Origin: Pyrodictium abyssi
GTDB taxonomy: Archaea > Thermoproteota > Thermoprotei_A > Sulfolobales > Pyrodictiaceae
Assembly (NCBI RefSeq): GCF_036323395.1
Contig: NZ_AP028907.1
Coordinates: 270,001-302,000 of the forward strand
Reading direction: 5' to 3'
DNA: 32,000 nucleotides
Positions 1 through 21,918 of this stretch are shown piece by piece; the first letter of the stretch is position 1, and each line of letters starts with the position of its first letter. The notes beneath the pieces are model-generated. The model was not told the origin of the DNA, ran no database searches, and saw nothing but the letters and a program-made list of their open reading frames with translations. Made by a program: the position numbers and the translations under genes.

Positions 1-24
1 AGGCCCGCAAGAGGCACAGGGGCG

Positions 25-210
25 TTGAAGCCCCACCGCCCAGCAGCAGGGCTCGCAACCCTCCTCCTACTAGCCATCATAGCCAACAGCACCGTAGTGC
101 TCCACATTACACACATCTACAAGACCCAGTACACCCTATACCCTAGCAAATGGCGCATAGGACTACCAATAATCATCTTGCTAGCAGCCTCCAGCACCTA
201 TGCTACATGA
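25..210 (+). CDS. hypothetical small hydrophobic protein
   Basis: 61-aa ORF with a non-ATG start. It has two hydrophobic stretches (LATLLLLAIIANSTVVL, IGLPIIILLAASS). Its TGA stop overlaps the ATG at 207 (ATGA) of the next ORF. No family recognised. Confidence 0.25.
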   Translation: MKPHRPAAGLATLLLLAIIANSTVVLHITHIYKTQYTLYPSKWRIGLPIIILLAASSTYAT

Positions 211-425
211 TCCTCTCCTCTAGAAGACTCGACAAGGTTACCAAAGCTATATGCATACTCACTGTTGCGGCAAACTGGGGCTCACTCGCCACCCTAGCAC
301 TATACACACACGACGTACTCGTCTACACAGGCCTAGCAGCATCACTCATACTCGGCACAACCATACTATACACCCTACAGCGCATAGAGACACCCACGCA
401 CCAGAAGAGGCCTCTAGCCTCCTAG
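207..425 (+). CDS. hypothetical small membrane protein
   Basis: In-frame ATG at 207 inside track ORF 150..425. Hydrophobic segments AICILTVAANWGSLATLALY and VYTGLAASLILGTTILY. ATGA overlap with the upstream ORF suggests coupling. Confidence 0.3.
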   Translation: MILSSRRLDKVTKAICILTVAANWGSLATLALYTHDVLVYTGLAASLILGTTILYTLQRIETPTHQKRPLAS

Positions 426-862
426 CACACCTCCCGGCCAGTCCACACAGCCACATAGCCCCCAGAGAACCCGCCACGACGCCGCCTCTTCTCATCAGCA
501 GCCCGGACCAGGTCCCCCAGACCCAGCCCCCGAAGCCGGAGCCACTCACGCAGAGCCTCAAACAAGTCAGCAGCCTCCTCGATAGACCCCGACTCAGCCA
601 GCTCCATAGCTTCCTCCACGATCTTAGCCCTCAGAAGCGCCTCCAGCTCCGAGCCAGAAACCCTGTAGACGACAACACCCTCCTGGCCCTCGAGCTCCCT
701 CCCAATCCCGTCGCGCACAAGTTTCCAACACACCAACCCCAGGACCCCAGCACCAAGAATCCGGAAGGGAAGCCAATAAGCCAATAGAACACGCAGAACC
801 AGAAGCGCCGGCATACAAGCCAGAGGCACAAGCCCCCAGAAACAAGAGCACATCGAGGACAC
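422..862 (-). CDS. hypothetical protein, N-terminal membrane anchor plus acidic helical domain
   Basis: 146-aa ORF starting at GTG 862 or ATG 853. The N-terminus is hydrophobic (GLVPLACMPALLVLRVLLAYWLPFRILGAGVLGLVCW), followed by protein-like sequence (SELEALLRAKIVEEAMELAESGSIEEAADLFEALREW). The opposite-strand ORF 251..787 is low-complexity P/T/H and looks spurious. Confidence 0.4.
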   Translation of the reverse strand: MSSMCSCFWGLVPLACMPALLVLRVLLAYWLPFRILGAGVLGLVCWKLVRDGIGRELEGQEGVVVYRVSGSELEALLRAKIVEEAMELAESGSIEEAADLFEALREWLRLRGLGLGDLVRAADEKRRRRGGFSGGYVAVWTGREVC

Positions 863-1009
863 AACAATTCAAACAGGAGGTGGAACCGACAGAAGCCGGA
901 TACCAGTGGAACACATCACGCAGCGAAGAGCGGGGGCCCAGACCCCGCAGCTAGGACCCAGGGGCCCTAGGCCCCGGGCCCTGGACCCCTTGGCGGGCCA
1001 CGCAGCCCT

Positions 1010-4140
<3,131 letters not shown>

Positions 4141-4281
4141 TGAGACCCGCCCAGGGCGGGGTCCAGGGCCCGGTCTAGCCGGCCCCTGGGCCCTACCTCC
4201 GCCCACCGGGCCCGTTTGGGCCCCCAGGCCCGGGATAGCAGGGCAACCGGTAGTGGCCCGTTGCGGGCCCCTTGCAGCCAC
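4141..4281 (-). other. 16S-23S internal transcribed spacer, no tRNA
   Basis: Contains the 5' strand of the 23S processing helix (4158-4173, 4181-4190) and the 3' strand of the 16S processing helix (4199-4242). No cloverleaf or T-loop motif is present. Confidence 0.8.
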
Positions 4282-5778
<1,497 letters not shown>

Positions 5779-6005
5779 CACGGCCGCAAGGCGGGCCCGT
5801 GGCCGGGCCACCCCGGTGCCGGCCTGCTATCCCGGGTGCCCGGGGTCTGGCCCCGGGCCCGGTGGGCGGGCGGGGTCTGGGCCCCCGTCAGGCCCAAGCG
5901 TCCCAGGGGTACGGCCCCTGGGTTTGCTTGGGCCCCCATTATTCGCCGCGTGATCGTCCCGCGCGCCCCGCCGGGTTGTCTCCCCGGCGGGGCTCGCCGT
6001 GTTTG
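5779..6005 (-). other. rRNA operon 5' leader carrying the 5' strand of the 16S processing helix
   Basis: 5823-5836 (CCTGCTATCCCGGG) is the exact reverse complement of 4229-4242. 5863-5876 pairs with 4201-4215. Together they give a bulged helix of about 45 bp enclosing the 16S, as expected for a bulge-helix-bulge processing site. Confidence 0.7.
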
Positions 6006-6023
6006 GGGCTTACCGGGCTAGGA

Positions 6024-6040
6024 GAGAATATAAGTATTTC
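6024..6040 (-). promoter_or_regulatory. probable rRNA operon promoter (TATA box)
   Basis: The minus strand reads GAAATACTTATATTCTC. This is the only AT-rich box upstream of the leader. The predicted start near 6000-6005 gives a leader of about 225 nt. GGGTTTTACC (minus strand, about 6078-6087) just upstream could terminate incoming transcription. Confidence 0.5.
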
Positions 6041-6672
6041 GGGGACGTGTTGTGTTAACTCTTCAGAGCCGCTGTATCCCGGTAAAACCCGGTGTTACTG
6101 AGGCATTTTCAATACCGTGACTTGCTCGCCGGCCCGGATGGGTATATGCCTCATCATACCTGATTTAAGACTCTCGGCTAACGTGTTCTACAGCGTCTCC
6201 CTGGCATGAGAGCGCCACGGTAGCTGTGAAGTGGGGCTAGCATCTTCTATGCGGCACATTATACTGTGATGTGGTGGGCGCACCAGGGGATTGCCTTGGA
6301 GCGGGTATCGGGGCACAAAGCCTATTCCCCATTACAGATAATGCTGGTAGGGGCTGTGTGCCGCAGAGCCAGAGGGCAGGGCAGCCCCGCCGGAGGCCGG
6401 GGCCGCGGGGGAGGAGAGGAGCCGAGAGGAGGGGCGTGAGCATGCGCCCTGGGGAGGACTGGCCCGCTGGGCACCGGGGCCGGGACCGGCTGTGACAGGA
6501 GAAGGGGGTGTGGTGTGCCCCCGGCTGGAGGCTAGACCGCCCATCCCCCGCCGGGCTTTGCCCGGCGTCGCGGCTGCGCCGCCGCCGGGAAGCCGGGGGC
6601 CGTGTAGAGGGCGTACCCGGGGGCGCTGTGTATCTGGGTTTCCCTCCAGGGGTGGAGGAGTGTGCTGCCGGG

Positions 6673-7842
6673 CTAGGGGGCGGGGAGCCCGGCCTCCTCG
6701 GCTACTGTCTCCCTCAGCCTGCGTAGGCAGCCCTCGCGGAGCCTTGGCCCCGCTTCTCCCTCCTCTAGGCACTCTCTGGGCGTGTCGTCTGGGCCTAGCC
6801 TCTCCTCGAGAGCCTCGAGGACTCTAGGTGGTAGCCCTCTCCTGTAGACGTCCTCGCAACCGTAGAGCCCCTTGATCAGGCGGGCTGCTACCGCTTCTAC
6901 CGCTGCGCCGGCTGCTAGGGCCCGTACCGCCTCGGCTGGGAACACTAGGTGGTGTACCAGGACTCCTCCGATCTTCTTCTTTGAGAGCTGTGTGGCAGCG
7001 GTATACGCGTCTACCGCCGCGCGGAGGAGGCCTGCGAGCTTCGCAGCCGGGTCGCTGGCCCCACAGGCGCTGTAGGCTAGGGGCAGTAGCCAGCGGCGGC
7101 GGGCGAAGAGGAGGCTAATGAGCGTCAGTGTGTGCTCCCGCCCTGGCGCGGGGGCCCGGCCTCTAGGGGTCCGTGGCTCCAGGAGCCGCTTGGGCGGCTT
7201 ACTGGGGGCTAGCGACATGGTGTAGCGGGCTGCCTGTAGCCAGTCCATCGACGCGTACTCTACGAGCTCTACCGCGTCTCCGCGCCGGGCAGGGTGGGGC
7301 CGCTGCTCAGCAGTCACAGCCTCGAGCCTGGCTCCGAGGAGCGCCGCTGCAGCCGCAGCCGCCTCGAGGGATAGTGCCTGTAGCGCGCTGTGCCCCTCCT
7401 CGTCCAGGACCACGTAGACCGATTGTGGGGGCCTGCGGCTCTGCCGGGCCGTCTCTAGGACCGCGTACAGCATGAAGGCTAGGGCGTCGCCGGGCGCTGC
7501 GGTGAACCTCCAGCCGCCCATCACTCCTCTCCAGGGCACGACGTGGTAGCTTGTGCGGCGGCAGGCCGAGAGGGGGAGGCGTAGGCCGCAGTGCCTCTCC
7601 ATGTAGCCGCGTAGCTTCTCTACCACCTCGCTATAGGCCTCGGAGCGGGGGAAGGCGCCTACCTGTGGCCACACACTGTAGGTGTCTGGTACTAGTACTA
7701 GGCCGGTGTTATCGTAGATGTTTGGGTCCAGCAGAGGCGCTACCGGGTCCAGCGCCTCGGCCGCTGCAGCGCCGTAGATATATTCGAGCCTCTCGCTCCT
7801 CCGGAAGGGGCTACCCATAGCGTATACCGCTAGCCCGGGCAA
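6673..7842 (-). CDS. hypothetical protein (389 aa, Ala/Arg-rich, roughly two-thirds G+C)
   Basis: Long ORF with varied, protein-like sequence (LEYIYGAAAAEALDPVAPLLDPNIYDNTGLVLVPDTYSVWPQ, SYHVVPWRGVMGGWRFTAAPGDALAFMLYAVLETAR). No family motif that I can name with confidence. Confidence 0.6.
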   Translation of the reverse strand: MPGLAVYAMGSPFRRSERLEYIYGAAAAEALDPVAPLLDPNIYDNTGLVLVPDTYSVWPQVGAFPRSEAYSEVVEKLRGYMERHCGLRLPLSACRRTSYHVVPWRGVMGGWRFTAAPGDALAFMLYAVLETARQSRRPPQSVYVVLDEEGHSALQALSLEAAAAAAALLGARLEAVTAEQRPHPARRGDAVELVEYASMDWLQAARYTMSLAPSKPPKRLLEPRTPRGRAPAPGREHTLTLISLLFARRRWLLPLAYSACGASDPAAKLAGLLRAAVDAYTAATQLSKKKIGGVLVHHLVFPAEAVRALAAGAAVEAVAARLIKGLYGCEDVYRRGLPPRVLEALEERLGPDDTPRECLEEGEAGPRLREGCLRRLRETVAEEAGLPAP

Positions 7843-8122
7843 GGCTCCAGCCTACACCCATGAGAGCCCTGCCCCCACCGAGGAGGAAAAGAAGGATACC
7901 CGGGGACGGGGAGAGGGACGGGGCCGCGCACCGGCAGCACACTCCCGCGCCGCGCGGGCACGTGCAGCGCGTGTAGCGGGCAAGGCGGCTCGGTGCGCGG
8001 CCTCGCCCACACCGCCCGGGAGAAGCGCTGGGGCGAGGGGCTTCGGGTGTCCGGCAGAGCATCCTCACAGCCCTAGGGAGGGGCGCAGGCGAGGAGTAGA
8101 CGAGGAGCCGGTGGACGTGGGG

Positions 8123-8199
<77 letters not shown>

Positions 8200-8498
8200 C
8201 ACCCTCCATGAGTCTAGCTGGCAGACGCTATAACCGGTCTATAAGCGTTCCTCCCGGCAGCGCCTCCCGGGGAGTCCTTCAGGAGCGTCTGGCAGAGCCG
8301 GGGAGCCACGGGGCCCAGAAGCGGGGGCTCTGATGCGGGCCTTACCGCCATCCCCCGCGCCCTGGCGGGGTTAGCGAGAGCTAGCTGGGTCTTACAACCC
8401 GGGTTCCCTCTTCATGGCCCCCAGTTTGTACGCCGACAGCCCCGGGATACACTGCTATTTGCGGCGCGGCCGCCAGGCCCGGGGGAGGGGCACGGAGA

Positions 8499-8509
8499 CC
8501 TATATTAGG
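8499..8509. promoter_or_regulatory. near-palindromic TATA element, possibly bidirectional
   Basis: CCTATATTAGG sits in otherwise GC-rich DNA. It is about 135 nt upstream of tRNA-His on the plus strand and faces the GC-rich 8200-8475 region on the minus strand. Confidence 0.4.
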
Positions 8510-8642
8510 CCACTCCTAGGCGAGAGCACAGCGACACGGAAGGAGGGCCGCCTCCGGAGAGCCCGCCCGCCGGGGCGGGTGATGAGGCTCAGCGGCCTCG
8601 CGTCGTGAGCACCCATAGCAGAGGGCGCTGTGACGCGTGAGA

Positions 8643-8719
8643 GGCCGCCGTAGCTCAGCCGGTAGAGCGCGGGGCTGTGGACCCCGAGGTCCCGGGTTCA
8701 AATCCCGGCGGCGGCCCCA
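8643..8719 (+). tRNA. tRNA-His (anticodon GUG) with encoded G-1 and CCA
   Basis: Sequence: G-GCCGCCGTAGCTCAGCCGGTAGAGCGCGGGGCTGTGGACCCCGAGGTCCCGGGTTCAAATCCCGGCGGCGGC-C-CCA. The anticodon loop is CTGTGGA. An extra 5' G (G-1) lies opposite discriminator C73, which is the His identity feature. Confidence 0.95.
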
Positions 8720-8856
8720 CTCGAGCCACCCTCCCAGCAAACCTTCCCGACTCCTCTCCGCCCCTAGCCACTCGCCCTTACCCGGCTACTCCTCCCGCTA
8801 CGGCAGCTCATTCATCACGTAACACCCATGGACGGCGGCGAACCCCTGCTATCTCT

Positions 8857-8872
8857 AATTTAAATATTATAA
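8857..8872. promoter_or_regulatory. strong AT-rich TATA-like element
   Basis: AATTTAAATATTATAA is the most AT-rich 16-mer in the 6-9.5 kb region. It lies about 195 nt upstream of the RNase P RNA P1 stem. What it drives is unresolved. Confidence 0.4.
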
Positions 8873-9065
8873 CTAGTCATTTGATGCATCATACAAGGTG
8901 CTACAAGCACCGTTGCTGTAGGCACAGCATGGACCGCGAACCTAGTGCCCGTATCCGGCTGGGGCCAGCCCCCGGGATACAGGCTGGCTGCGCTGGAGGA
9001 GCAGGGGCGCGCCAGGCGGGTGTCCCAGTTTATCACTGGGTGCTGCATATGTGACAGCTACACAT

Positions 9066-9406
9066 GGCCCCCGGGCCCCGGCTGGCCGCCGACGGGCCCC
9101 TTAGGGGGCCCGAGGAAACTCCGCCCTCCCCGCGGCACCGGGGCCCCGCAAGGGGCGCGGGTGACACCCGCGGCAACGGCACAGAAACGGCACGCCCGCC
9201 CGCGGGAGGACGGTGATGCGGCGAGGGCCCGCCGGCGACGGCGGGCCAGTAACCCGCTGAGGACCCGGGCGGGTGCGTTGAAACGGCCGTCCCCTGGGGA
9301 GCAAGGCGGCGCGCCGATGAGGGCCGCGCGAGTGGCGCGCCGGGGACCGCTTAGTCGAATGCGGCCGTAGGTACAGAAGGCGGGTTATAGCCGGGGCCCG
9401 GGGGCC
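9066..9406 (+). ncRNA. rnpB: RNase P RNA (archaeal type A-like)
   Basis: P1: 9066-9083 (GGCCCCCGGGCCCCGGCT) is the perfect reverse complement of 9389-9406. P2: GGCCGC (9084) pairs with GCGGCC (9361). P3 hairpin: GGGCCCC-TTA-GGGGCCC. CR-I/P4 5' strand: GAGGAAACTCCGCC. CR-V/P4 3' strand: ACAGAAGGCGGGTTATAG. Length is 341 nt with very high G+C. Track ORFs 8945..9370(+) and 9101..9442(-) over it are low-complexity and spurious. Confidence 0.85.
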
Positions 9407-9492
9407 TACTGCCCTGCTTCTGGCCCGAGGAGGGGGACTCATCGCTACATATTAGGTGTATGCTAGCGGTTCTGGCCCCTGGGTGGCCCTGG

Positions 9493-9903
9493 ATGGGTAG
9501 GAGGAGGCGTAAGTATAGGAAGCCACAGCTGCTGAGGGCGCCTAGGGCGCTCCCCACCATATTCGACTGCCCCCACTGCGGCGCCCGCGCTGTTAGCGTG
9601 GAGATGCGGAAGAAGGAGAAGAACGAGCGTGGAGAGATCAAGGCTGTGGTTAAGTGCGGTAAGTGTGGCCTCTACGCCGAGATGTGGGTGCCCGAGATAT
9701 TCCAGCCTGTTGACGTGTACTCGAAGTTCCTGGACGCCTATCTAGAGGGTAGGCTCGAGTACACGTTCATCAAGGAGGGCGGGGAAGCTACCCTGTCGCT
9801 CGAGGAGCTGGCATCGGAGGGCGAGGAAGGAGAGGAGGCGGTTGAGGGTGGCGAAGCCTGGGAGAGTGGAAGCGGCGCTGAGGAGGAAGGTAGAGGCTGG
9901 TGA
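9493..9903 (+). CDS. elf1: transcription elongation factor 1 (Elf1) homolog, zinc ribbon with acidic C-terminal tail
   Basis: Starts at the internal ATG 9493 with MGRRRRKYRKP. A C4 zinc ribbon is present (FDCPHCG...VKCGKCG), followed by PVDVYSKFLDAY, which matches the eukaryotic Elf1 PIDIYSDWIDAC region. The tail is Glu/Gly-rich. A TATA-like ACATATTAGG lies at 9449-9458. Confidence 0.85.
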   Translation: MGRRRRKYRKPQLLRAPRALPTIFDCPHCGARAVSVEMRKKEKNERGEIKAVVKCGKCGLYAEMWVPEIFQPVDVYSKFLDAYLEGRLEYTFIKEGGEATLSLEELASEGEEGEEAVEGGEAWESGSGAEEEGRGW

Positions 9904-10591
9904 GAAGCTCTTCTTCCTCCTATCCGACCCCGAGAAGCCTCTAGACGTGGAAGTAGTAGCGCGGTTCGAGGAGAGCGGAGCGGACGCGCTACTGATAGGC
10001 GGTAGCCTCAACGTGACACCATACGACATAGACAGCTACATCTCGGCTCTCCGCGAGCACGGCGTGAAACTGCCCACCATACTGTTCCCGGGCGGGCTTA
10101 ACAACGTGGCCCGGAGCGCGGACGCTATACTCTTCATGTCGCTGCTCAATAGCCTCGACTCCTACTGGCTGATAGGCGCGCAGGTCTCAGCAGCGCTGCT
10201 GGTAAAGCGCCTAGGGCTAGAGGCCATACCCACTGCCTACATCATAGTGGGGCACGGAGGCGCTGCCGGGCATATCGGCCGTGCACAGCCTGTCCCGCTC
10301 GAGAATGTGTACATAGTAGCGGCCTACGCCGCTGCTGCCGAGCTGCTAGGCTTCCGCGCCATATACCTTGAGGCTGGCTCTGGGTCGCCCCACCCTATAC
10401 CGGTCGAGGCGGTAAGGCATGCTAGGGCTGTTACCGAGGACATACTGCTGATAGCGGGCGGCGGGATAAAGTCGCCAGAGTACGCAAGGAGCCTTGTAGA
10501 CAGCGGGGCTGATGCTATAGTCGTCGGCACCCTGGCCGAGACAAACCCCGAGAAAGCCCTGGGTATACTGGAGAGGGTGAAGAAGAGGTAG
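9842..10591 (+). CDS. geranylgeranylglyceryl phosphate (GGGP) synthase, PcrB family
   Basis: Motifs: FFLLSDPEKP, ADALLIGGS, IYLEAGSGSPHPIP, LIAGGGIKSPE, DAIVVGT. The start is ambiguous (TTG 9842, GTG 9848 or GTG 9866). All three options overlap the elf1 3' end. Confidence 0.9.
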   Translation: MRVAKPGRVEAALRRKVEAGEKLFFLLSDPEKPLDVEVVARFEESGADALLIGGSLNVTPYDIDSYISALREHGVKLPTILFPGGLNNVARSADAILFMSLLNSLDSYWLIGAQVSAALLVKRLGLEAIPTAYIIVGHGGAAGHIGRAQPVPLENVYIVAAYAAAAELLGFRAIYLEAGSGSPHPIPVEAVRHARAVTEDILLIAGGGIKSPEYARSLVDSGADAIVVGTLAETNPEKALGILERVKKR

Positions 10592-11142: not shown

Positions 11143-11340
11143 TTATATTAGGCTGAAAAGCACAATCGCTGCAATGAACCCCATGGTGATCATCATTACG
11201 TGGATAGGCTTTATCCTGAATACTGCGTCTTCCTCGCTGAAGGCTAGTAGACCAGCAGCTGTGAACACTGTTGGTGCTGTATCTTTGCTCTTCTCCTCCT
11301 TCTTGCTATCCTTCTTCGTGCTCCGAGGCACGGAGCCCAC
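11143..11340 (-). CDS. secG: preprotein translocase subunit Sec61-beta (archaeal SecG)
   Basis: 65 aa with a basic N-terminus. TAAGLLAFSEEDAVFRIKPIHVMMITMGFIAAIVLFSLI matches the SAGL(I/M)RY..E....I...P..V pattern, followed by a single C-terminal TM helix. Confidence 0.8.
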   Translation of the reverse strand: MGSVPRSTKKDSKKEEKSKDTAPTVFTAAGLLAFSEEDAVFRIKPIHVMMITMGFIAAIVLFSLI

Positions 11341-11456
11341 ACACCCTGGTGCGTATCCGGGGCTGGGGAGTGTCTTACCTCTTTCCCTCTACGCGTGTGC
11401 CCCGGGGGCCCGGACACCGGGCCGCCCAGCACACACTCTGTCCCACTACCGACCCA

Positions 11457-11477
11457 CTCCACAGGAAAGCTAGGGGT
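11457..11477 (+). promoter_or_regulatory. ORB-like box a
   Basis: CTCCACAGGAAAGCTAGGGGT. Confidence 0.6.
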
Positions 11478-11534
11478 CGTATGACTAATCGGTAAAGCTA
11501 TTAGATAGATTTTTACACTATTACTCTGGGAGCC

Positions 11535-11555
11535 ACCCCTGCTGTTCTAGTGGAT
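11535..11555 (-). promoter_or_regulatory. ORB-like box c (inverted relative to box a)
   Basis: The minus strand reads ATCCACTAGAACAGCAGGGGT. With box a it brackets 57 bp of AT-rich DNA that includes GATAGATTTTTACAC. Confidence 0.55.
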
Positions 11556-11726
11556 AAGTGAGCTACCGGTATCGGGTTATTGCCGAGTACATAGCTAGCC
11601 TCATTAGTATTGAATGAAAGTTTAGGCAAACACATCTAGATGGAATAGAATAGAGATATAAGGTTTCCAGAATATCATGGATTGTATTGTCTGTTAAATG
11701 CAAGGCTATGTCTGTGGTTGTACGTG

Positions 11727-11766
11727 GCTACTGGAAGCTGTGGGGTCCCCGGAAGTTCCACGGCCC
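11727..11766. promoter_or_regulatory. two partial, opposed ORB-like half boxes sharing a GGGGTCCCC centre
   Basis: Plus strand: GCTACTGGAAGCTGTGGGGTC (11727-11747). Minus strand: GGGCCGTGGAACTTCCGGGGAC (11745-11766). Both keep the TGGAA-N-GGGG part and lose the TCCA part. Confidence 0.35.
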
Positions 11767-11832
11767 GGGCTTCTGTTATGGCTCCAGCTGGGTGGGACGT
11801 CGTCACTGTGTCTGTGGTGGGTTTCTGGTGGG

Positions 11833-11853
11833 CTCCAGTGGAAGGCGAGGGGT
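11833..11853 (+). promoter_or_regulatory. ORB-like box b
   Basis: CTCCAGTGGAAGGCGAGGGGT, located 8 nt from the tiaS stop codon. The CTCCAGTGGAA core is identical to characterised archaeal ORB cores. Confidence 0.6.
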
Positions 11854-11860
11854 TGTTTAC

Positions 11861-13102
11861 CTAGAGGTAAATATTGTCGCTTATCATGGGTGTTGTGGGA
11901 GGGGAGGGCTTCTTCGCCCCGGAGCGGCGGTTTGGCGGCCGCATGAGGTGGTGGAACGAGGATAGTGGGGGCGTGTAGCAGCCGAGTAGACTCCGCTCCT
12001 GTACGCTGCACGGGCCCCCTGTGGTGCCGGGCTCGTGTACACATAGGTACTCGGCGTTTAGCGTCAGGGCGCCCCGGTGGGGCTTCGCCTGACCCCCGAC
12101 CTCTACCAGCGAGCCAGGCGGTAGACGGAGGACTATCTTGCGGAGTATGCCCGTCTCTCTGTAGAATGCTGTGTCGATACAGCCTGTATCGTCGCAGAGC
12201 CGTGCTATGACGTGTCCGCCGGGAATCCTCCTAGCGGAGTGTACGCGGCCTACGACAACCGGGTTATCGTAGGGCCTTATGCGGGAGACCGGCTTCCTCT
12301 GGAGGTGTGCGTTGGTGGCCTGGTTTGTGCGGAAGAGCGCCCAGTGACTGGGCTCCTCGCCAGCGTCTATAATCTCGAGCGCCTTGAGGAGTATGCTGGG
12401 CTGTTCGCCGCGGACCCCGTAGAGTACCGGGTCGTATCCGTGCGGGTGTATGAGCACTCTCCTCTGCGCGTAGTCGTAGTTCATGAACGTGGATGGGCGT
12501 GTGCGGATGTCGAACTCTATCACGCTAGCCTCGTCTATCCTGCGCTCGTGGGGCCAGCGTTCGAGCCTCCTATACACGATGAGCTCGAACGTGAAGTCGT
12601 CTAGAGAGGCTCCTAGCGCGGCGAGGGAGCCTATTAGGCCGCGTGCGCCACGTCCATGCAGTGCTACGACCCTGCCTCCGAGCTCTCCTAGGCACTTCTC
12701 TGCTAGACGGAGCGGTACAGCCTCGTGAACGGCTCTCCTGTAGAGGTTCTCTAGGCACTCTGGCCTCGAGGAGAGATACCCGTGCAGCGTATCGGCCTCC
12801 TCTACCAGTAGCAGTGCGTATGCAGCCTTACCCTGGGAGCCCACAGAGTAGAGCTGGGCCACACTGTGTAGCAGCCTGGCTAGCCGCTCTAGCTCCCGCT
12901 TACCATCCACGTTGAATAGTAGTGCTACGGCGCCGTTGCCCCTCGTCTTCCAGGGCACGGCGGGGTTTAGGCGGATAAGCCACGGGTAGTCAGCTAGGCT
13001 AAGCCCCTCGTCTAGGGCTCGACGAGCCACGAGCGATGAAAGGTGAGTAGTACACCCCGCGAACGACGTGTCAAAGCTGTCAAGGCCTACAGCGGCTATC
13101 AA
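11861..13102 (-). CDS. tiaS: tRNA(Ile2) 2-agmatinylcytidine synthetase TiaS
   Basis: N-terminus VGLDSFDTSFAGCTTH...YPWLIRLNPAVPWKTRGNGAVA, then GRGARGLIGSLAALGASLDDFTFELIVYR and PVLYGVRGE...TNQATNAHL, all typical of TiaS. The C-terminus lacks the four-Cys zinc ribbon seen in the Archaeoglobus enzyme. Confidence 0.85.
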   Translation of the reverse strand: MIAAVGLDSFDTSFAGCTTHLSSLVARRALDEGLSLADYPWLIRLNPAVPWKTRGNGAVALLFNVDGKRELERLARLLHSVAQLYSVGSQGKAAYALLLVEEADTLHGYLSSRPECLENLYRRAVHEAVPLRLAEKCLGELGGRVVALHGRGARGLIGSLAALGASLDDFTFELIVYRRLERWPHERRIDEASVIEFDIRTRPSTFMNYDYAQRRVLIHPHGYDPVLYGVRGEQPSILLKALEIIDAGEEPSHWALFRTNQATNAHLQRKPVSRIRPYDNPVVVGRVHSARRIPGGHVIARLCDDTGCIDTAFYRETGILRKIVLRLPPGSLVEVGGQAKPHRGALTLNAEYLCVHEPGTTGGPCSVQERSLLGCYTPPLSSFHHLMRPPNRRSGAKKPSPPTTPMISDNIYL

Positions 13103-13346: not shown

Positions 13347-13592
13347 TTAGAAGTTTTCATAGTCTCTTACGACTATCATTGTGAGTGTTGAGCGGACTCT
13401 TGGTGAGCTCCGGAGATTCTTGTACACTATATCCCTTAGCTTGCTCATGTCGTCGCTCTCTATTATAGCGACTATGTCGTATAGGCCGTACACCATGTAT
13501 ACTGCGCGCACCTCAGGCAGCTTCTTCAGTGTCTCGAAGATCTCCTCGTCGGCCCCCATCTCGGTATTTATTAGGATAACAGCCTTGGGCAT
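13347..13592 (-). CDS. stand-alone Lrp/AsnC-type ligand-binding (RAM) domain protein
   Basis: 81 aa. VILINTEMGADEEIFETLKKLPEVRAVYMVYGLYDIVAIIESDDMSKL fits the beta-alpha-beta-beta-alpha-beta RAM fold pattern. No HTH is present. Confidence 0.7.
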   Translation of the reverse strand: MPKAVILINTEMGADEEIFETLKKLPEVRAVYMVYGLYDIVAIIESDDMSKLRDIVYKNLRSSPRVRSTLTMIVVRDYENF

Positions 13593-14478: not shown

Positions 14479-14566
14479 TGGTGCGGGGGGTGGGATTTGA
14501 ACCCACGCAGGCCTACGCCAGCGGGTCCTAAGCCCGCCCCCTTTGACCTGGCTCGGGCACCCCCGC
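14479..14566 (-). tRNA. tRNA-Leu (anticodon UAG), long variable arm, CCA encoded
   Basis: Reverse complement: GCGGGGGTGCCCGAGCCAGGTCAAAGGGGGCGGGCTTAGGACCCGCTGGCGTAGGCCTGCGTGGGTTCAAATCCCACCCCCCGCACCA. The anticodon loop is CTTAGGA. Confidence 0.95.
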
Positions 14567-21026: not shown

Positions 21027-21168
21027 TCTACCTTTTATTCATCGCTACTGAGATATTATAAGTTGCAGACTTATAGCCGGATTCTTGCTCATTCCTCCAA
21101 GCGCAACGGCCTCCTCTCACTCTTATACCCTTTCCCTCGGAAAACCTAGGACACGGGTGCACACGGCA

Positions 21169-21918
21169 GTGGCGAGAGCTAGACTATCATATCCTGACGC
21201 TAAATCATTCTACAATATGCTCGACGCCATATCTAAGATAGTTGATGAGGTAACAATGATAATAACTAACGAGGGAGTGAAGGCCATAGCACTTGACCCA
21301 GCACACGTGGCACTGATAACTATAGAGCTGCCGCCAGAGAGCTTTATAGAGTACGAGGTAGAGGGCGAAGAAGTAAAGCTAGGGTTCAACGTAGCCAATA
21401 CAGCTAAGCTTATCAAGCGTGGAAAGAAGGGAGACAAACTAGACATAGAAGTTGACGACGAGAGAGTCACCTGGTCAATAGTAGGCGCAACTATAAAGCG
21501 TTACCGCGTACTAAACCTTGACGTCCCCGTCCCCGAGATACCAGATGCACAGCTAGAATTCAAGATAAAGATAGCAATGATAGTAGACCCGTTTAAGAAC
21601 GCGCTTAAGGATGCTGAGGCTGTAGGCGATACGGTAGAGCTAGAGGCTCTGGACGAGAGCACATTCGTGATAAGGGGTGTAGGAGCTGCAACAGCCGAGG
21701 CTAAGATTAGAAGTGATTCGCCTGCAGTAGTCGAATTCAGTGTAGACGAGCCCGGTAAGTCCGCCTACAGTATAGACTATCTGAAACATGTAGTATCGCT
21801 AACAAAGGTTGCTGACACGATTTCGATAGAGTTCTCTCAGGATATGCCGCTAAGGCTGCAGTTCCAACTACCAGCAGGAGGTAAGGTAACATACCTACTA
21901 GCCCCAAAGGTGGCATAG
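21169..21918 (+). CDS. pcn: DNA polymerase sliding clamp PCNA
   Basis: Start placed at GTG 21169 (MARARLSYPDAKSF...), giving the canonical length of about 249 aa. A TCTTATACC box lies about 45 nt upstream. DAISKIVDEVTMIITNEGVKAIALDPAHVALITIELP and the C-terminal KVTYLLAPKV are PCNA-like. The upstream extension in the track ORF looks non-coding. Confidence 0.9.
   Translation: MARARLSYPDAKSFYNMLDAISKIVDEVTMIITNEGVKAIALDPAHVALITIELPPESFIEYEVEGEEVKLGFNVANTAKLIKRGKKGDKLDIEVDDERVTWSIVGATIKRYRVLNLDVPVPEIPDAQLEFKIKIAMIVDPFKNALKDAEAVGDTVELEALDESTFVIRGVGAATAEAKIRSDSPAVVEFSVDEPGKSAYSIDYLKHVVSLTKVADTISIEFSQDMPLRLQFQLPAGGKVTYLLAPKVA

Follow-up and report, generated by a model that had tools for sequence, protein, structure and literature searches.

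The intergenic region at positions 11341-11860 of the window (the whole stretch of 32,000 nucleotides of Pyrodictium abyssi DNA that was analysed) raises the question of whether a chromosomal replication origin can be recognised at a site with no initiator gene beside it. A first-pass annotation had proposed a probable origin here, and our analysis supports that reading through inverted origin recognition boxes (ORBs) that fit the published consensus and enclose an AT-rich core, an element at the position of the ucm, conservation among relatives and synteny with oriC1. We consider it highly likely that the gap holds an origin of chromosomal replication belonging to the oriC1 type, which depends on Orc1-1, and very probably it is the main one of the chromosome.

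The intergenic region and its neighbours

The gap measures 520 bp, as had been stated, and Pfam bore out the identity of both genes that had been named as its neighbours. These genes are:

11143-11340, minus strand: sec61-beta, recognised by Pfam PF03911 and by its translation; a neighbour outside the predicted replicator, with transcription leading away from it
11861-13102, minus strand: tiaS (tRNA-Ile2 agmatinylcytidine synthetase), recognised by the Pfam matches TiaS_FLD, TiaS_TCKD and OB fold; its 3' end abuts the predicted origin

The gene order in the window is AsnC-tiaS-ORB cassette-sec61-beta. The placement of tiaS next to the predicted origin is found in the Pyrodictiaceae and also in Acidilobaceae-type MAGs, Caldisphaera and Metallosphaera, which makes tiaS a conserved anchor gene. 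The best database match of the TiaS protein of the window is 94% identical to it, and no identical counterpart of the PCNA of the window was found among the proteins searched.

No usable inflection of the GC skew was found at the gap at scales of 200 bp and 2 kb over the 32 kb, a result that is uninformative for crenarchaea with multiple origins and is not supportive. The local change of sign in GC skew is due to the composition of genes and boxes, and the large-scale profile is unusable because the GC-rich rRNA operon dominates it. To the right of the gap, the majority of the genes in the 32 kb are head-on to a rightward fork.

The rRNA operon lies 5.7 kb from the gap and is co-directional with a fork leaving it, an arrangement that speaks weakly for an origin. 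The GC-rich block at 1-9400, with ORFs that gave no Pfam matches, was considered as a foreign element and this was rejected, as the block consists of the rRNA operon, tRNAs and the RNase P RNA.

Origin recognition boxes

Three copies of a 21-nt motif had been described in the gap by the first-pass annotation, and their coordinates and strands proved exact. A statistic based on its own pattern would be circular, and therefore we searched with TCCAGTGGAANNNNAGGGGT, which was derived from the published consensus (PMC4153887 Table 2), allowing up to two mismatches. Exactly three matches were obtained in the 32 kb, where 0.02 were expected, all of them inside the gap and within 400 bp; three matches were reached by none of 100 shuffled sequences. 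The boxes and a palindrome associated with one of them are:

11457-11477, plus strand: ORB-C, CTCCACAGGAAAGCTAGGGGT, outer box on the sec61-beta side, with two mismatches to TCCAGTGGAANNNNAGGGGT and the G-string toward ORB-B
11535-11555, minus strand: ORB-B, ATCCACTAGAACAGCAGGGGT (minus-strand reading), inner box on the sec61-beta side, with the dyad toward the AT-rich core and the G-string outward
11727-11746, plus strand: ORB-A', GCTACTGGAAGCTGTGGGGT, degenerate inner box on the tiaS side, with four mismatches and the dyad end toward the core
11833-11853, plus strand: ORB-A, CTCCAGTGGAAGGCGAGGGGT, outer box on the tiaS side, with no mismatches to the published ORB pattern
11856-11871, no strand: palindrome TTTACC-TAGA-GGTAAA, abutting the G-string of ORB-A and overlapping the tiaS stop codon

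ORB-C, placed about 117 nt from the sec61-beta start, is the best conserved box, the 20-mer TCCACAGGAAAGCTAGGGGT being identical in the window and in six of the eight other complete Pyrodictiaceae gaps. The position of ORB-B is kept at approximately 292-357 nt from the tiaS stop and its orientation is the same in all relatives, with invariant columns in an alignment (A1) of the nine Pyrodictiaceae gaps. ORB-A is conserved beside the tiaS stop codon in relatives and is degenerate, with more than four mismatches, in the locus L003.

Two partial copies of the motif had been described as lying face to face at 11727-11766. The one on the plus strand (11727-11746) is conserved in relatives and constitutes the fourth, degenerate box that had not been recognised as such, while the opposing one (11747-11766) is not conserved. 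ORB-A' contains the GGAA core and the G-string and has no TCCA arm; a box of identical orientation scores at +106 to +122 from the stop of tiaS in P. delaneyi, P. occultum and Pyrofollis as well as in the window, and six of its columns are invariant over all nine sequences of A1. Similarly, the half-site CTGGAAACC noticed at 11661-11672 is present, but it is not conserved in relatives.

The palindrome, which the first-pass annotation had missed, stays attached to ORB-A throughout the relatives, including those in which 35-90 nt separate the box from the tiaS stop and the locus L004 with its flipped cassette. A similar TTTAC...GTTAAA comes after ORB1 in Metallosphaera. The palindrome is probably an extension of ORB-A or a putative site for an accessory factor.

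AT-rich core and ucm-like element

The inverted pair formed by ORB-B (minus strand) and ORB-A'/ORB-A (plus strand) flanks an AT-rich core toward which the dyads face. Within it we identified:

11556-11726, no strand: predicted AT-rich duplex-unwinding element (DUE) between the inward-facing boxes, with its least stable part at 11600-11699
11620-11631, minus strand: ucm-like element, GTTTGCCTAAAC (minus-strand reading), inside the core and missed by the first-pass annotation

The G+C counts that had been made by hand, 23/60 at 11581-11640 and 18/60 at 11641-11700, were correct. Among all 100-bp segments of the 32 kb, none is poorer in G+C or less stable than 11600-11699, with a G+C of 0.30 and a nearest-neighbour free energy of -116.4 kcal/mol, which is about 4 sd away from the local mean of -149.9 (sd 7.9). 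The core stays AT-rich in relatives and its sequence, with the exception of the ucm, is not conserved.

A ucm (TTATACAAAC / ATTATACAAAC) inside the DUE is a feature of Sulfolobales and Desulfurococcales origins. In Sulfolobus the ucm, GTTTGTATAAT, is the site bound by the protein UBP (PMC12141716), and the element GTTTGCCTAAAC of the window is its positional counterpart, with the central TA changed to CC. The activity of oriC1 in S. islandicus depends on the ucm, which is also reported to be conserved at both A. pernix origins (PMC12141716).

The pattern GTTTGNNTAAA has a single match in the 32-kb window, and this is the ucm-like element within the core. An element at the equivalent position of the core was found in all eight other complete Pyrodictiaceae gaps. 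H. butylicus, Pyrofollis, L002 and L003 carry the published ucm 10-mer GTTTGTATAA unchanged, P. delaneyi and P. occultum carry it with one mismatch at the equivalent position, and L017 and Caldisphaera have an exact copy of the full 11-mer. The element of the window has two central mismatches to the 10-mer and three to the 11-mer, which is above the single mismatch allowed by Ori-Finder-Arch. The centre of the ucm varies naturally in a CC/GC/TC/TA series, which could be used as a probe of the specificity of UBP.

Location of the initiator gene

An adjacent orc1/cdc6 gene is typical of Orc1/Cdc6-dependent origins and is not obligatory. The statement of the first-pass annotation that the window has no such gene was confirmed by Pfam on the ORFs and by tblastn of three Orc1-1 proteins against the six frames, which gave no match. 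The Pfam scan covered 46 of the 47 ORFs of at least 110 aa (an ORF at 11706-12044 inside tiaS was omitted) and some smaller ones, and detected no winged-helix initiator gene among them; the small unannotated ORFs of the window, considered as candidates for UBP, gave no PDB match.

The genomes of P. delaneyi and H. butylicus each contain a gene for an Orc1-1 orthologue that shares about 60% identity with the Metallosphaera protein. A PDB comparison of the P. delaneyi protein gave as top matches 2V1U and 2QBY chain A, the two initiators crystallised on ORB DNA, 2V1U being A. pernix ORC1. In H. butylicus orc1-1 is located approximately 560 kb from the tiaS/sec61-beta cassette. The possibility of a competing origin beside orc1-1 was rejected, as neither ORB nor ucm was found in the orc1-1 flanks of P. 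delaneyi and H. butylicus.

The lack of an adjacent initiator had been considered unusual, and this holds for archaea in general but not for this lineage, where the situation is already documented. In A. pernix neither cdc6 gene adjoins the origins (PMC5333045), in I. hospitalis the predicted origin and the orc1/cdc6 genes are not co-localised (PMC2614490), and in H. butylicus the origin regarded as the main oriC has no initiator gene beside it (bioRxiv 10.64898/2026.08.15.744077).

Conservation in the Pyrodictiaceae

In all eight further Pyrodictiaceae loci whose gap is complete, the five-element cassette lies between tiaS and sec61-beta. Its cultured carriers include P. delaneyi Su06, with the gap at about 547.8-548.3 kb of CP013011.1, P. 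occultum PL-19 and H. butylicus DSM 5456. The order, spacing and orientation of the elements are identical in P. delaneyi, P. occultum, Pyrofollis, H. butylicus and the MAGs L002, L003 and L005; in L004 the cassette is flipped in place with its internal architecture kept. The mean column identity of A1 is 45%, and nearly all of its 62 invariant columns fall within the five elements and the palindrome, the rest of the gap having diverged. ORB matches outside the gaps amount to 0-2 per 6-21 kb of locus. This pattern indicates purifying selection on the five-element cassette throughout the family. Moreover, the cassette behaves as an autonomous unit, given that it is flipped in L004 and that its downstream neighbour differs between lineages, being the gene for a POR subunit in Caldisphaera and orc1-1 in Metallosphaera.

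Proposed function and alternative explanations

What the sequences themselves show is the set of elements in the gap, how specific they are to it, how well they are conserved and that their position is orthologous to oriC1. By analogy with Sulfolobus and Aeropyrum, monomers of Orc1-1 encoded elsewhere on the chromosome would bind the four boxes in fixed polarity, with the winged-helix domain on the TCCA..GGAA dyad and the AAA+ domain touching the G-string. The inner boxes, ORB-B and the degenerate ORB-A', would act as an inverted pair whose dyad ends face the 172-bp AT-rich core, onto which ATP-bound Orc1-1 would recruit the MCM helicase. The ucm-like element at 11620-31 would be the expected site of the nucleoid protein UBP, helping MCM to leave the origin, and the outer boxes ORB-A and ORB-C may add cooperative initiator binding. 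Protein binding, unwinding and firing at the gap are what we infer from this analogy.

It might be argued that the gap holds an origin which, though conserved, is dormant or a relict, a remnant of oriC1 left after orc1-1 had moved, which binds Orc1-1 and fires never or only under special conditions while replication starts elsewhere. The distance of the H. butylicus initiator gene (about 560 kb), the degenerate inner box and the altered ucm of the window would agree with this, dormant ORB-bearing origins are described for haloarchaea (PMC4595724), and two H. butylicus origins are listed in DoriC (PMC4164010). Nevertheless, the order, spacing and orientation of the five elements are kept across genera with TiaS proteins 52-70% identical, amid intervening DNA that has diverged, and this is not the pattern expected of a decaying relic. 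Moreover, the relocated orc1-1 has no adjacent ORBs that could substitute for those of the gap, and the initiator-distal origin treated as the main oriC of H. butylicus (bioRxiv 10.64898/2026.08.15.744077) is presumably the cassette locus. A relict is for these reasons an improbable explanation.

We regard it as very unlikely that the boxes are operators through which a protein of the Orc1/Cdc6 family, or another factor, regulates sec61-beta or tiaS, even though they lie upstream of sec61-beta, with ORB-C close to its start, and Orc1-2 paralogues of Sulfolobales are reported to regulate transcription (PMC9738581). The boxes fit the ORB consensus of the initiator, an unwinding core and an element at the ucm position would be superfluous for a promoter, and the architecture is kept both when the cassette is flipped relative to the two genes (L004) and when POR (Caldisphaera) or orc1-1 (Metallosphaera) is the downstream gene. 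That the motifs cluster by chance, or that an ordinary spacer hides an unannotated small gene or RNA, is scarcely credible. Several short ORFs of 40-92 aa do overlap the gap, but indels not divisible by three are frequent in its alignment and no conservation was seen outside the five elements; Rfam gave no matches in the gap at gathering thresholds or even at E<=1, and three ORB matches stand against the 0.02 expected.

An origin of the oriC1 type is thus the preferred reading. The find is probably correct and yet ordinary, because origins of such a design with the initiator encoded elsewhere were already known in this group, and the picture of archaeal replication is left unchanged. What it adds is an element-by-element map of the likely main origin of the Pyrodictiaceae, comprising four boxes, an unwinding core, the position of the ucm and the palindrome associated with ORB-A; for these extreme hyperthermophiles a literature search found no experimental mapping of replication.

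Comparison with known origins

In origins of the WhiP type (Sulfolobus oriC3 and A. pernix oriC2, with the arrangement IR(+)/ucm/IR(-)), inverted repeats TACTACTACTAC flank the ucm, usually beside whiP. This type was rejected for the gap, since no TACTAC repeats occur there: a search for TACTACTACTAC with up to two mismatches gave zero matches inside 11341-11860.

Within the family, the tiaS/sec61-beta gap of H. butylicus (CP000493.1, approximately 5.0-5.5 kb) has the same five-element cassette as the window, with an exact ucm 10-mer. We infer that this cassette is the catalogued main oriC of H. butylicus, the case without an adjacent RIP gene in DoriC / Ori-Finder-Arch, which appears to be a prediction itself.

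The oriC1 of A. pernix, which belongs to the same traditional order (Desulfurococcales), is said to have been validated by 2D gels and footprinting in the work of Grainge et al. of 2006 and of Robinson & Bell of 2007, whereas the origin in the window is a predicted one. The nearest match to the Orc1-1 orthologue of Pyrodictium is the A. pernix ORC1 in the structure 2V1U. Like the site in the window, the A. pernix origin lies away from both cdc6 genes (PMC5333045), and it has ORBs and a ucm (PMC12141716; bioRxiv 10.1101/2021.04.21.440749), as the predicted origin has ORBs and a ucm-like element.

The oriC/orc1-cdc6.1 locus of Methanomassiliicoccales (PMC4153887) shares with the window a form of the ORB with a shortened spacer, GTTCCAGTGGAAATGG-AGGGGT. 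Outside Thermoproteota, 50 retrieved loci, mostly of Methanomassiliicoccales, have tiaS at 0.3-4 kb from ORBs and orc1. In this different phylum the ORBs flank the initiator gene and are upstream of tiaS, whereas those of the window are downstream of it, and a ucm is not reported for the locus. We suggest, tentatively and as an idea that may well be wrong, that the replicator rather than the initiator gene is the evolutionarily anchored partner. The tiaS-oriC-orc1 neighbourhood would predate the split between Thermoproteota and Thermoplasmatota and would survive in Methanomassiliicoccales as orc1-ORBs-tiaS and in Sulfolobales as tiaS-ORBs-orc1-1. Pyrodictiaceae, Caldisphaera and Acidilobaceae-type lineages would have had only the initiator gene excised and moved by hundreds of kilobases, leaving a cis element that stays in place at the 3' end of tiaS and can be flipped there (L004). 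If so, the clade would be a natural experiment on the importance of the linkage between initiator and replicator.

Among the closest parallels is the Orc1-1-dependent oriC1 of Sulfolobales (S. solfataricus, S. acidocaldarius, S. islandicus), with the arrangement ORB3-DUE(ucm)-ORB2-ORB1 beside orc1-1. Both share the box syntax TCCAGTGGAA-N4-AGGGGT and inverted inner boxes with their dyads toward an AT-rich core that holds an element at the ucm position; in polarity ORB-B corresponds to ORB2 and ORB-A' to ORB3. The chromosomal anchor directly 3' of AsnC-tiaS is also common to both, as seen in Metallosphaera, and Elf1, PcrB and Sec61-beta are close by as well. In Metallosphaera, a member of the Sulfolobales, the order is AsnC-tiaS-tRNA-ORB(-)-ucm-ORB(+)-ORB(+)-orc1-1, and therefore the site in the window is the positional orthologue of oriC1 from which the initiator gene has moved away; Caldisphaera and Acidilobaceae-type MAGs have four boxes and an exact ucm after tiaS, without orc1. 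The window differs from oriC1 of Sulfolobales in several respects: orc1-1 is not adjacent, the inner box next to tiaS is degenerate, the boxes number four rather than three and the outer one of one side is inverted, the core is about twice as long (172 bp versus 90 bp in Metallosphaera) and the ucm centre is CC where oriC1 has TA. This synteny ties the site to the well-studied oriC1 of Sulfolobus and provides defined targets for work on Orc1-1 and UBP binding and on marker frequency.

Origin recognition boxes in the tiaS/sec61-beta gap

Pfam identified the genes on either side of the gap as those encoding Sec61-beta and TiaS. Since both are on the minus strand, the gap follows tiaS and precedes sec61-beta in the direction of transcription. 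Its extent, 520 bp at 11341-11860, and the three 21-nt motifs that the first-pass annotation had read as origin recognition boxes (ORBs, the Orc1/Cdc6 sites) were confirmed.

Features in and around the gap
11143-11340, minus strand: Sec61-beta gene
11457-11477, plus strand: ORB
11535-11555, minus strand: ORB
11620-11631: ucm-like element GTTTGCCTAAAC
11727-11746, plus strand: degenerate fourth box (ORB-A'), GCTACTGGAAGCTGTGGGGT, the inner box on the tiaS side
11833-11853, plus strand: ORB
11856-11871: palindrome TTTACC-TAGA-GGTAAA, abutting the G-string of ORB-A and overlapping the tiaS stop codon
11861-13102, minus strand: TiaS gene

The zero expectation obtained with the consensus proposed at first is circular, because that consensus was built from the same copies. 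For an independent test the archaeal ORB consensus, CTTCCAGTGGAAACGAAAGGGGT, with its short-spacer form GTTCCAGTGGAAATGG-AGGGGT, was taken from PMC4153887 (Table 2), and the pattern TCCAGTGGAANNNNAGGGGT was derived from it. Allowing up to two mismatches, exactly three matches were found in the 32-kb window, namely the three boxes, with 0.02 expected; a third mismatch added a single unrelated match. The earlier hand counts of G+C proved exact, the minimum (0.30) being at 11600-11699, the least stable 100 bp of the 32 kb and about 4 sd off the local mean. GC skew, which had been proposed as a check, gave no support within the window, nor did gene-strand bias. As for the partial copies described as face to face, the degenerate box at 11727-11746 is kept in relatives, but the opposing copy at 11747-11766 is not conserved in the nine-sequence alignment, and neither is the half-site CTGGAAACC at 11661-11672. 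A WhiP-type origin was excluded, the gap having no WhiP-type repeats.

The unwinding element of S. islandicus oriC1 contains an 11-bp sequence named ucm (Dhanaraju et al. 2025, PMC12141716). Origin activity there requires it, the protein UBP, which also contacts MCM, binds to it, and its conservation extends through Sulfolobales and to the two A. pernix origins (PMC12141716). By comparing the wild-type and mutated oligonucleotides of that study we read ucm as ATTATACAAAC (reverse complement GTTTGTATAAT). The putative ucm-like element of the window lies midway along the AT-rich core and is the single occurrence of GTTTGNNTAAA in 32 kb; its centre is CC, whereas that of ucm is TA.

Conservation in Pyrodictiaceae

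The tiaS loci of H. butylicus, P. delaneyi, P. occultum and Pyrofollis japonicus (complete or near-complete genomes, L081-L084) and of five Pyrodictiaceae MAG contigs (L001-L005) were compared. The gap is complete in four of these contigs; L001 stops about 100 bp past tiaS and keeps ORB-A only. The TiaS of the window is 93-94% identical to the protein of a MAG labelled Pyrodictium delaneyi, 70% to that of cultured P. delaneyi, 67% to that of P. occultum and 58% to that of H. butylicus, which places the window in a Pyrodictium-like species. The genes keep one order throughout (PCNA ... CCA-adding enzyme ... AsnC-tiaS-gap-sec61-beta-MazG-PcrB-Elf1), and every complete gap compared contains the same five-element cassette.

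Cassette elements, with offsets counted from the tiaS stop codon and tiaS set on the plus strand
ORB-A, minus strand: about +8 in the window, H. butylicus, P. delaneyi and P. occultum; +35 to +90 in Pyrofollis, L002 and L005
ORB-A' (degenerate), minus strand: +106 to +122; scored in the window, P. delaneyi, P. occultum and Pyrofollis
ucm-like element, plus strand: +224 to +288
ORB-B, plus strand: +292 to +357
ORB-C, minus strand: 77-90 nt past ORB-B

In L003 ORB-A is degenerate, beyond the four-mismatch limit. Outside the cassette there are 0-2 ORB matches per locus (loci of 6-21 kb). Mean column identity of the nine-sequence gap alignment is 45%, and nearly all of its 62 invariant columns fall within the five elements and the palindrome; judged from the alignment, the cassette elements are under purifying selection. 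At the ucm position the flanks GTTTG..TAAA are invariant (window, L081-L084, L002-L005), and the two central bases are TA in H. butylicus, Pyrofollis, L002 and L003, TC in P. delaneyi and P. occultum, and GC in L004 and L005.

The palindrome TTTACC-N4-GGTAAA is directly 3' of the ORB-A G-string in the window, the five MAG contigs and the four genomes, and travels with ORB-A even when the box sits 35-90 nt from the tiaS stop. A similar TTTAC...GTTAAA follows ORB1 of the Metallosphaera locus (L085, about 11818-11835). It may be an extension of the ORB or an accessory-factor site; no published description of it was found in the literature searched.

In the Hyperthermus sp. MAG contig QNYQ01000017.1 (L004) the entire cassette has the reverse orientation relative to tiaS and sec61-beta, still aligning element for element. 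This inversion of about 450 bp (7600-8075), which retains the five elements and their internal spacing, is known from one MAG contig and might conceivably be an assembly artefact.

Function of the cassette

The origin interpretation is upheld by the specificity of the boxes, the purifying selection on the elements and the synteny with oriC1, and the gap is very probably an Orc1-1-dependent chromosomal replication origin of the oriC1 type. By analogy with Sulfolobus and Aeropyrum (PMC12141716, PMC3607249), an Orc1-1 monomer would sit on each box with a set polarity. The inverted inner pair, occupied by ATP-bound Orc1-1, would load MCM at the AT-rich core, UBP bound to the ucm position may help MCM to become active or to leave, and the outer boxes would add initiator binding.

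That the cassette is instead a dormant relic of an origin seems unlikely, and fits poorly with every element being conserved family-wide. We give still less credit to a promoter or operator region, since the cassette is independent of the orientation and identity of the neighbouring genes. A chance cluster of motifs, or a gene for an RNA or for a small protein, can practically be dismissed, given three boxes against 0.02 expected, a gap conserved only in its elements and no Rfam match within it.

Neighbouring genes

An 81-aa ORF (13347-13592, minus strand) that consists solely of an Lrp/AsnC ligand-binding domain is found directly upstream of tiaS in the window and in all Pyrodictiaceae, Caldisphaera and Metallosphaera loci with gene tables examined (L081-L086). 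The two genes, a tightly conserved pair, adjoin the putative origin. The gene for the PCNA sliding-clamp subunit (21085-21918, plus strand) is 9.5 kb from the putative origin, with the same spacing to the gap and the same gene order in all four complete-genome relatives. RNA genes of the window are as follows.

1040-5778, minus strand: 23S and 16S rRNA genes
8124-8200, minus strand: tRNA-Ala
8644-8719, plus strand: tRNA-His
9073-9399, plus strand: RNase P RNA
14479-14566, minus strand: tRNA-Leu

The left third of the window does not code for protein, and the rRNA, tRNAs and RNase P RNA explain its 65-71% G+C and its many ORFs without Pfam matches. The rRNA operon, 5.7 kb from the putative origin, is transcribed away from it and would be co-directional with the leftward fork.

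Initiator gene

The reported lack of an orc1/cdc6 gene was borne out: the Pfam scan, which covered 46 of the 47 ORFs of 110 aa or longer together with smaller ones, showed no Orc1/Cdc6 domain, and tblastn of three Orc1-1 proteins against all six frames of the window gave no match. Orc1-1 orthologues of P. delaneyi and H. butylicus are 59-61% identical to the Metallosphaera protein. The best PDB matches of the P. delaneyi protein are 2V1U (A. pernix ORC1 on ORB DNA, 1.6e-137) and 2QBY chain A (S. solfataricus Cdc6-1, 4.3e-136), with Cdc6-3 and ORC2 far behind. On the 1.67-Mb chromosome of H. butylicus (CP000493.1) orc1-1 is at about 565.8-567.1 kb and the cassette at about 5.0-5.5 kb, and around orc1-1 of this species and of P. 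delaneyi there is neither ORB nor ucm. We infer that the initiator acts in trans on the cassette. The tiaS/sec61-beta gap of H. butylicus is close to base 1 of the deposited record, and its genome paper reportedly could link neither cdc6 gene to an origin.

The missing neighbour had been called unusual; the gene is truly absent, but the word is too strong for this lineage. Neither cdc6 gene of A. pernix adjoins its origins (PMC5333045), the orc1/cdc6 genes of I. hospitalis are apart from the predicted origin (PMC2614490), and the main H. butylicus oriC is presented as a model ORB(-)/DUE/ORB(+) origin (DUE, AT-rich duplex-unwinding element) with "no adjacent RIP gene", RIP being the initiator protein (bioRxiv 10.64898/2026.08.15.744077).

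Among further loci chosen solely by TiaS similarity (L015-L080), 50 from outside Thermoproteota, mostly Methanomassiliicoccales and related Thermoplasmatota, carry orc1/cdc6 0.3-4 kb from tiaS (at about 6000-10000 of the locus), with 41-53% identity to crenarchaeal Orc1-1. The gene is upstream of tiaS in all but L079, with ORB boxes alongside in nearly all; in L037, L038 and L058 orc1 and tiaS are transcribed away from each other, and the ORBs lie in the intergenic region between them. The Desulfurococcaceae loci L006-L012 and L014 are without the linkage. These 50 loci and Metallosphaera suggest that a tiaS-oriC-orc1 linkage spans two phyla, although each group has its ORBs on a different side of tiaS.

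Comparison with oriC1

The Metallosphaera locus reads Elf1-PcrB-Sec61-beta-...-AsnC-tiaS-tRNA-ORB(-)-ucm-ORB(+)-ORB(+)-orc1/cdc6, with boxes TCCAGTGGAAACAGAGGGGT, which is the classical Sulfolobales arrangement ORB3-DUE(ucm)-ORB2-ORB1-orc1-1 (PMC12141716). A tRNA-like sequence was seen by eye between its tiaS and boxes (L085:11260-11335). The inner boxes of the window share the polarity of Metallosphaera ORB3 and ORB2, dyad to the core and G-string outward. Caldisphaera lagunensis and the Acidilobaceae-type MAG L016 have four boxes and ucm directly after tiaS, ucm being exact in the former and with one mismatch in the latter; no orc1 adjoins the Caldisphaera cassette. Four boxes with only a weak ucm match are present in the Desulfurococcales MAG L013, and L017 has an exact ucm within a more distal box cluster. 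The A. pernix origin, ORB4 included, presumably has the four-box layout.

From the shared tiaS-side layout and box polarity we infer that the window site is the positional orthologue of oriC1, one that has lost its neighbouring initiator gene. The design of the cassette and an unlinked initiator gene are both already documented in this lineage, and the site therefore adds to a known type of origin.
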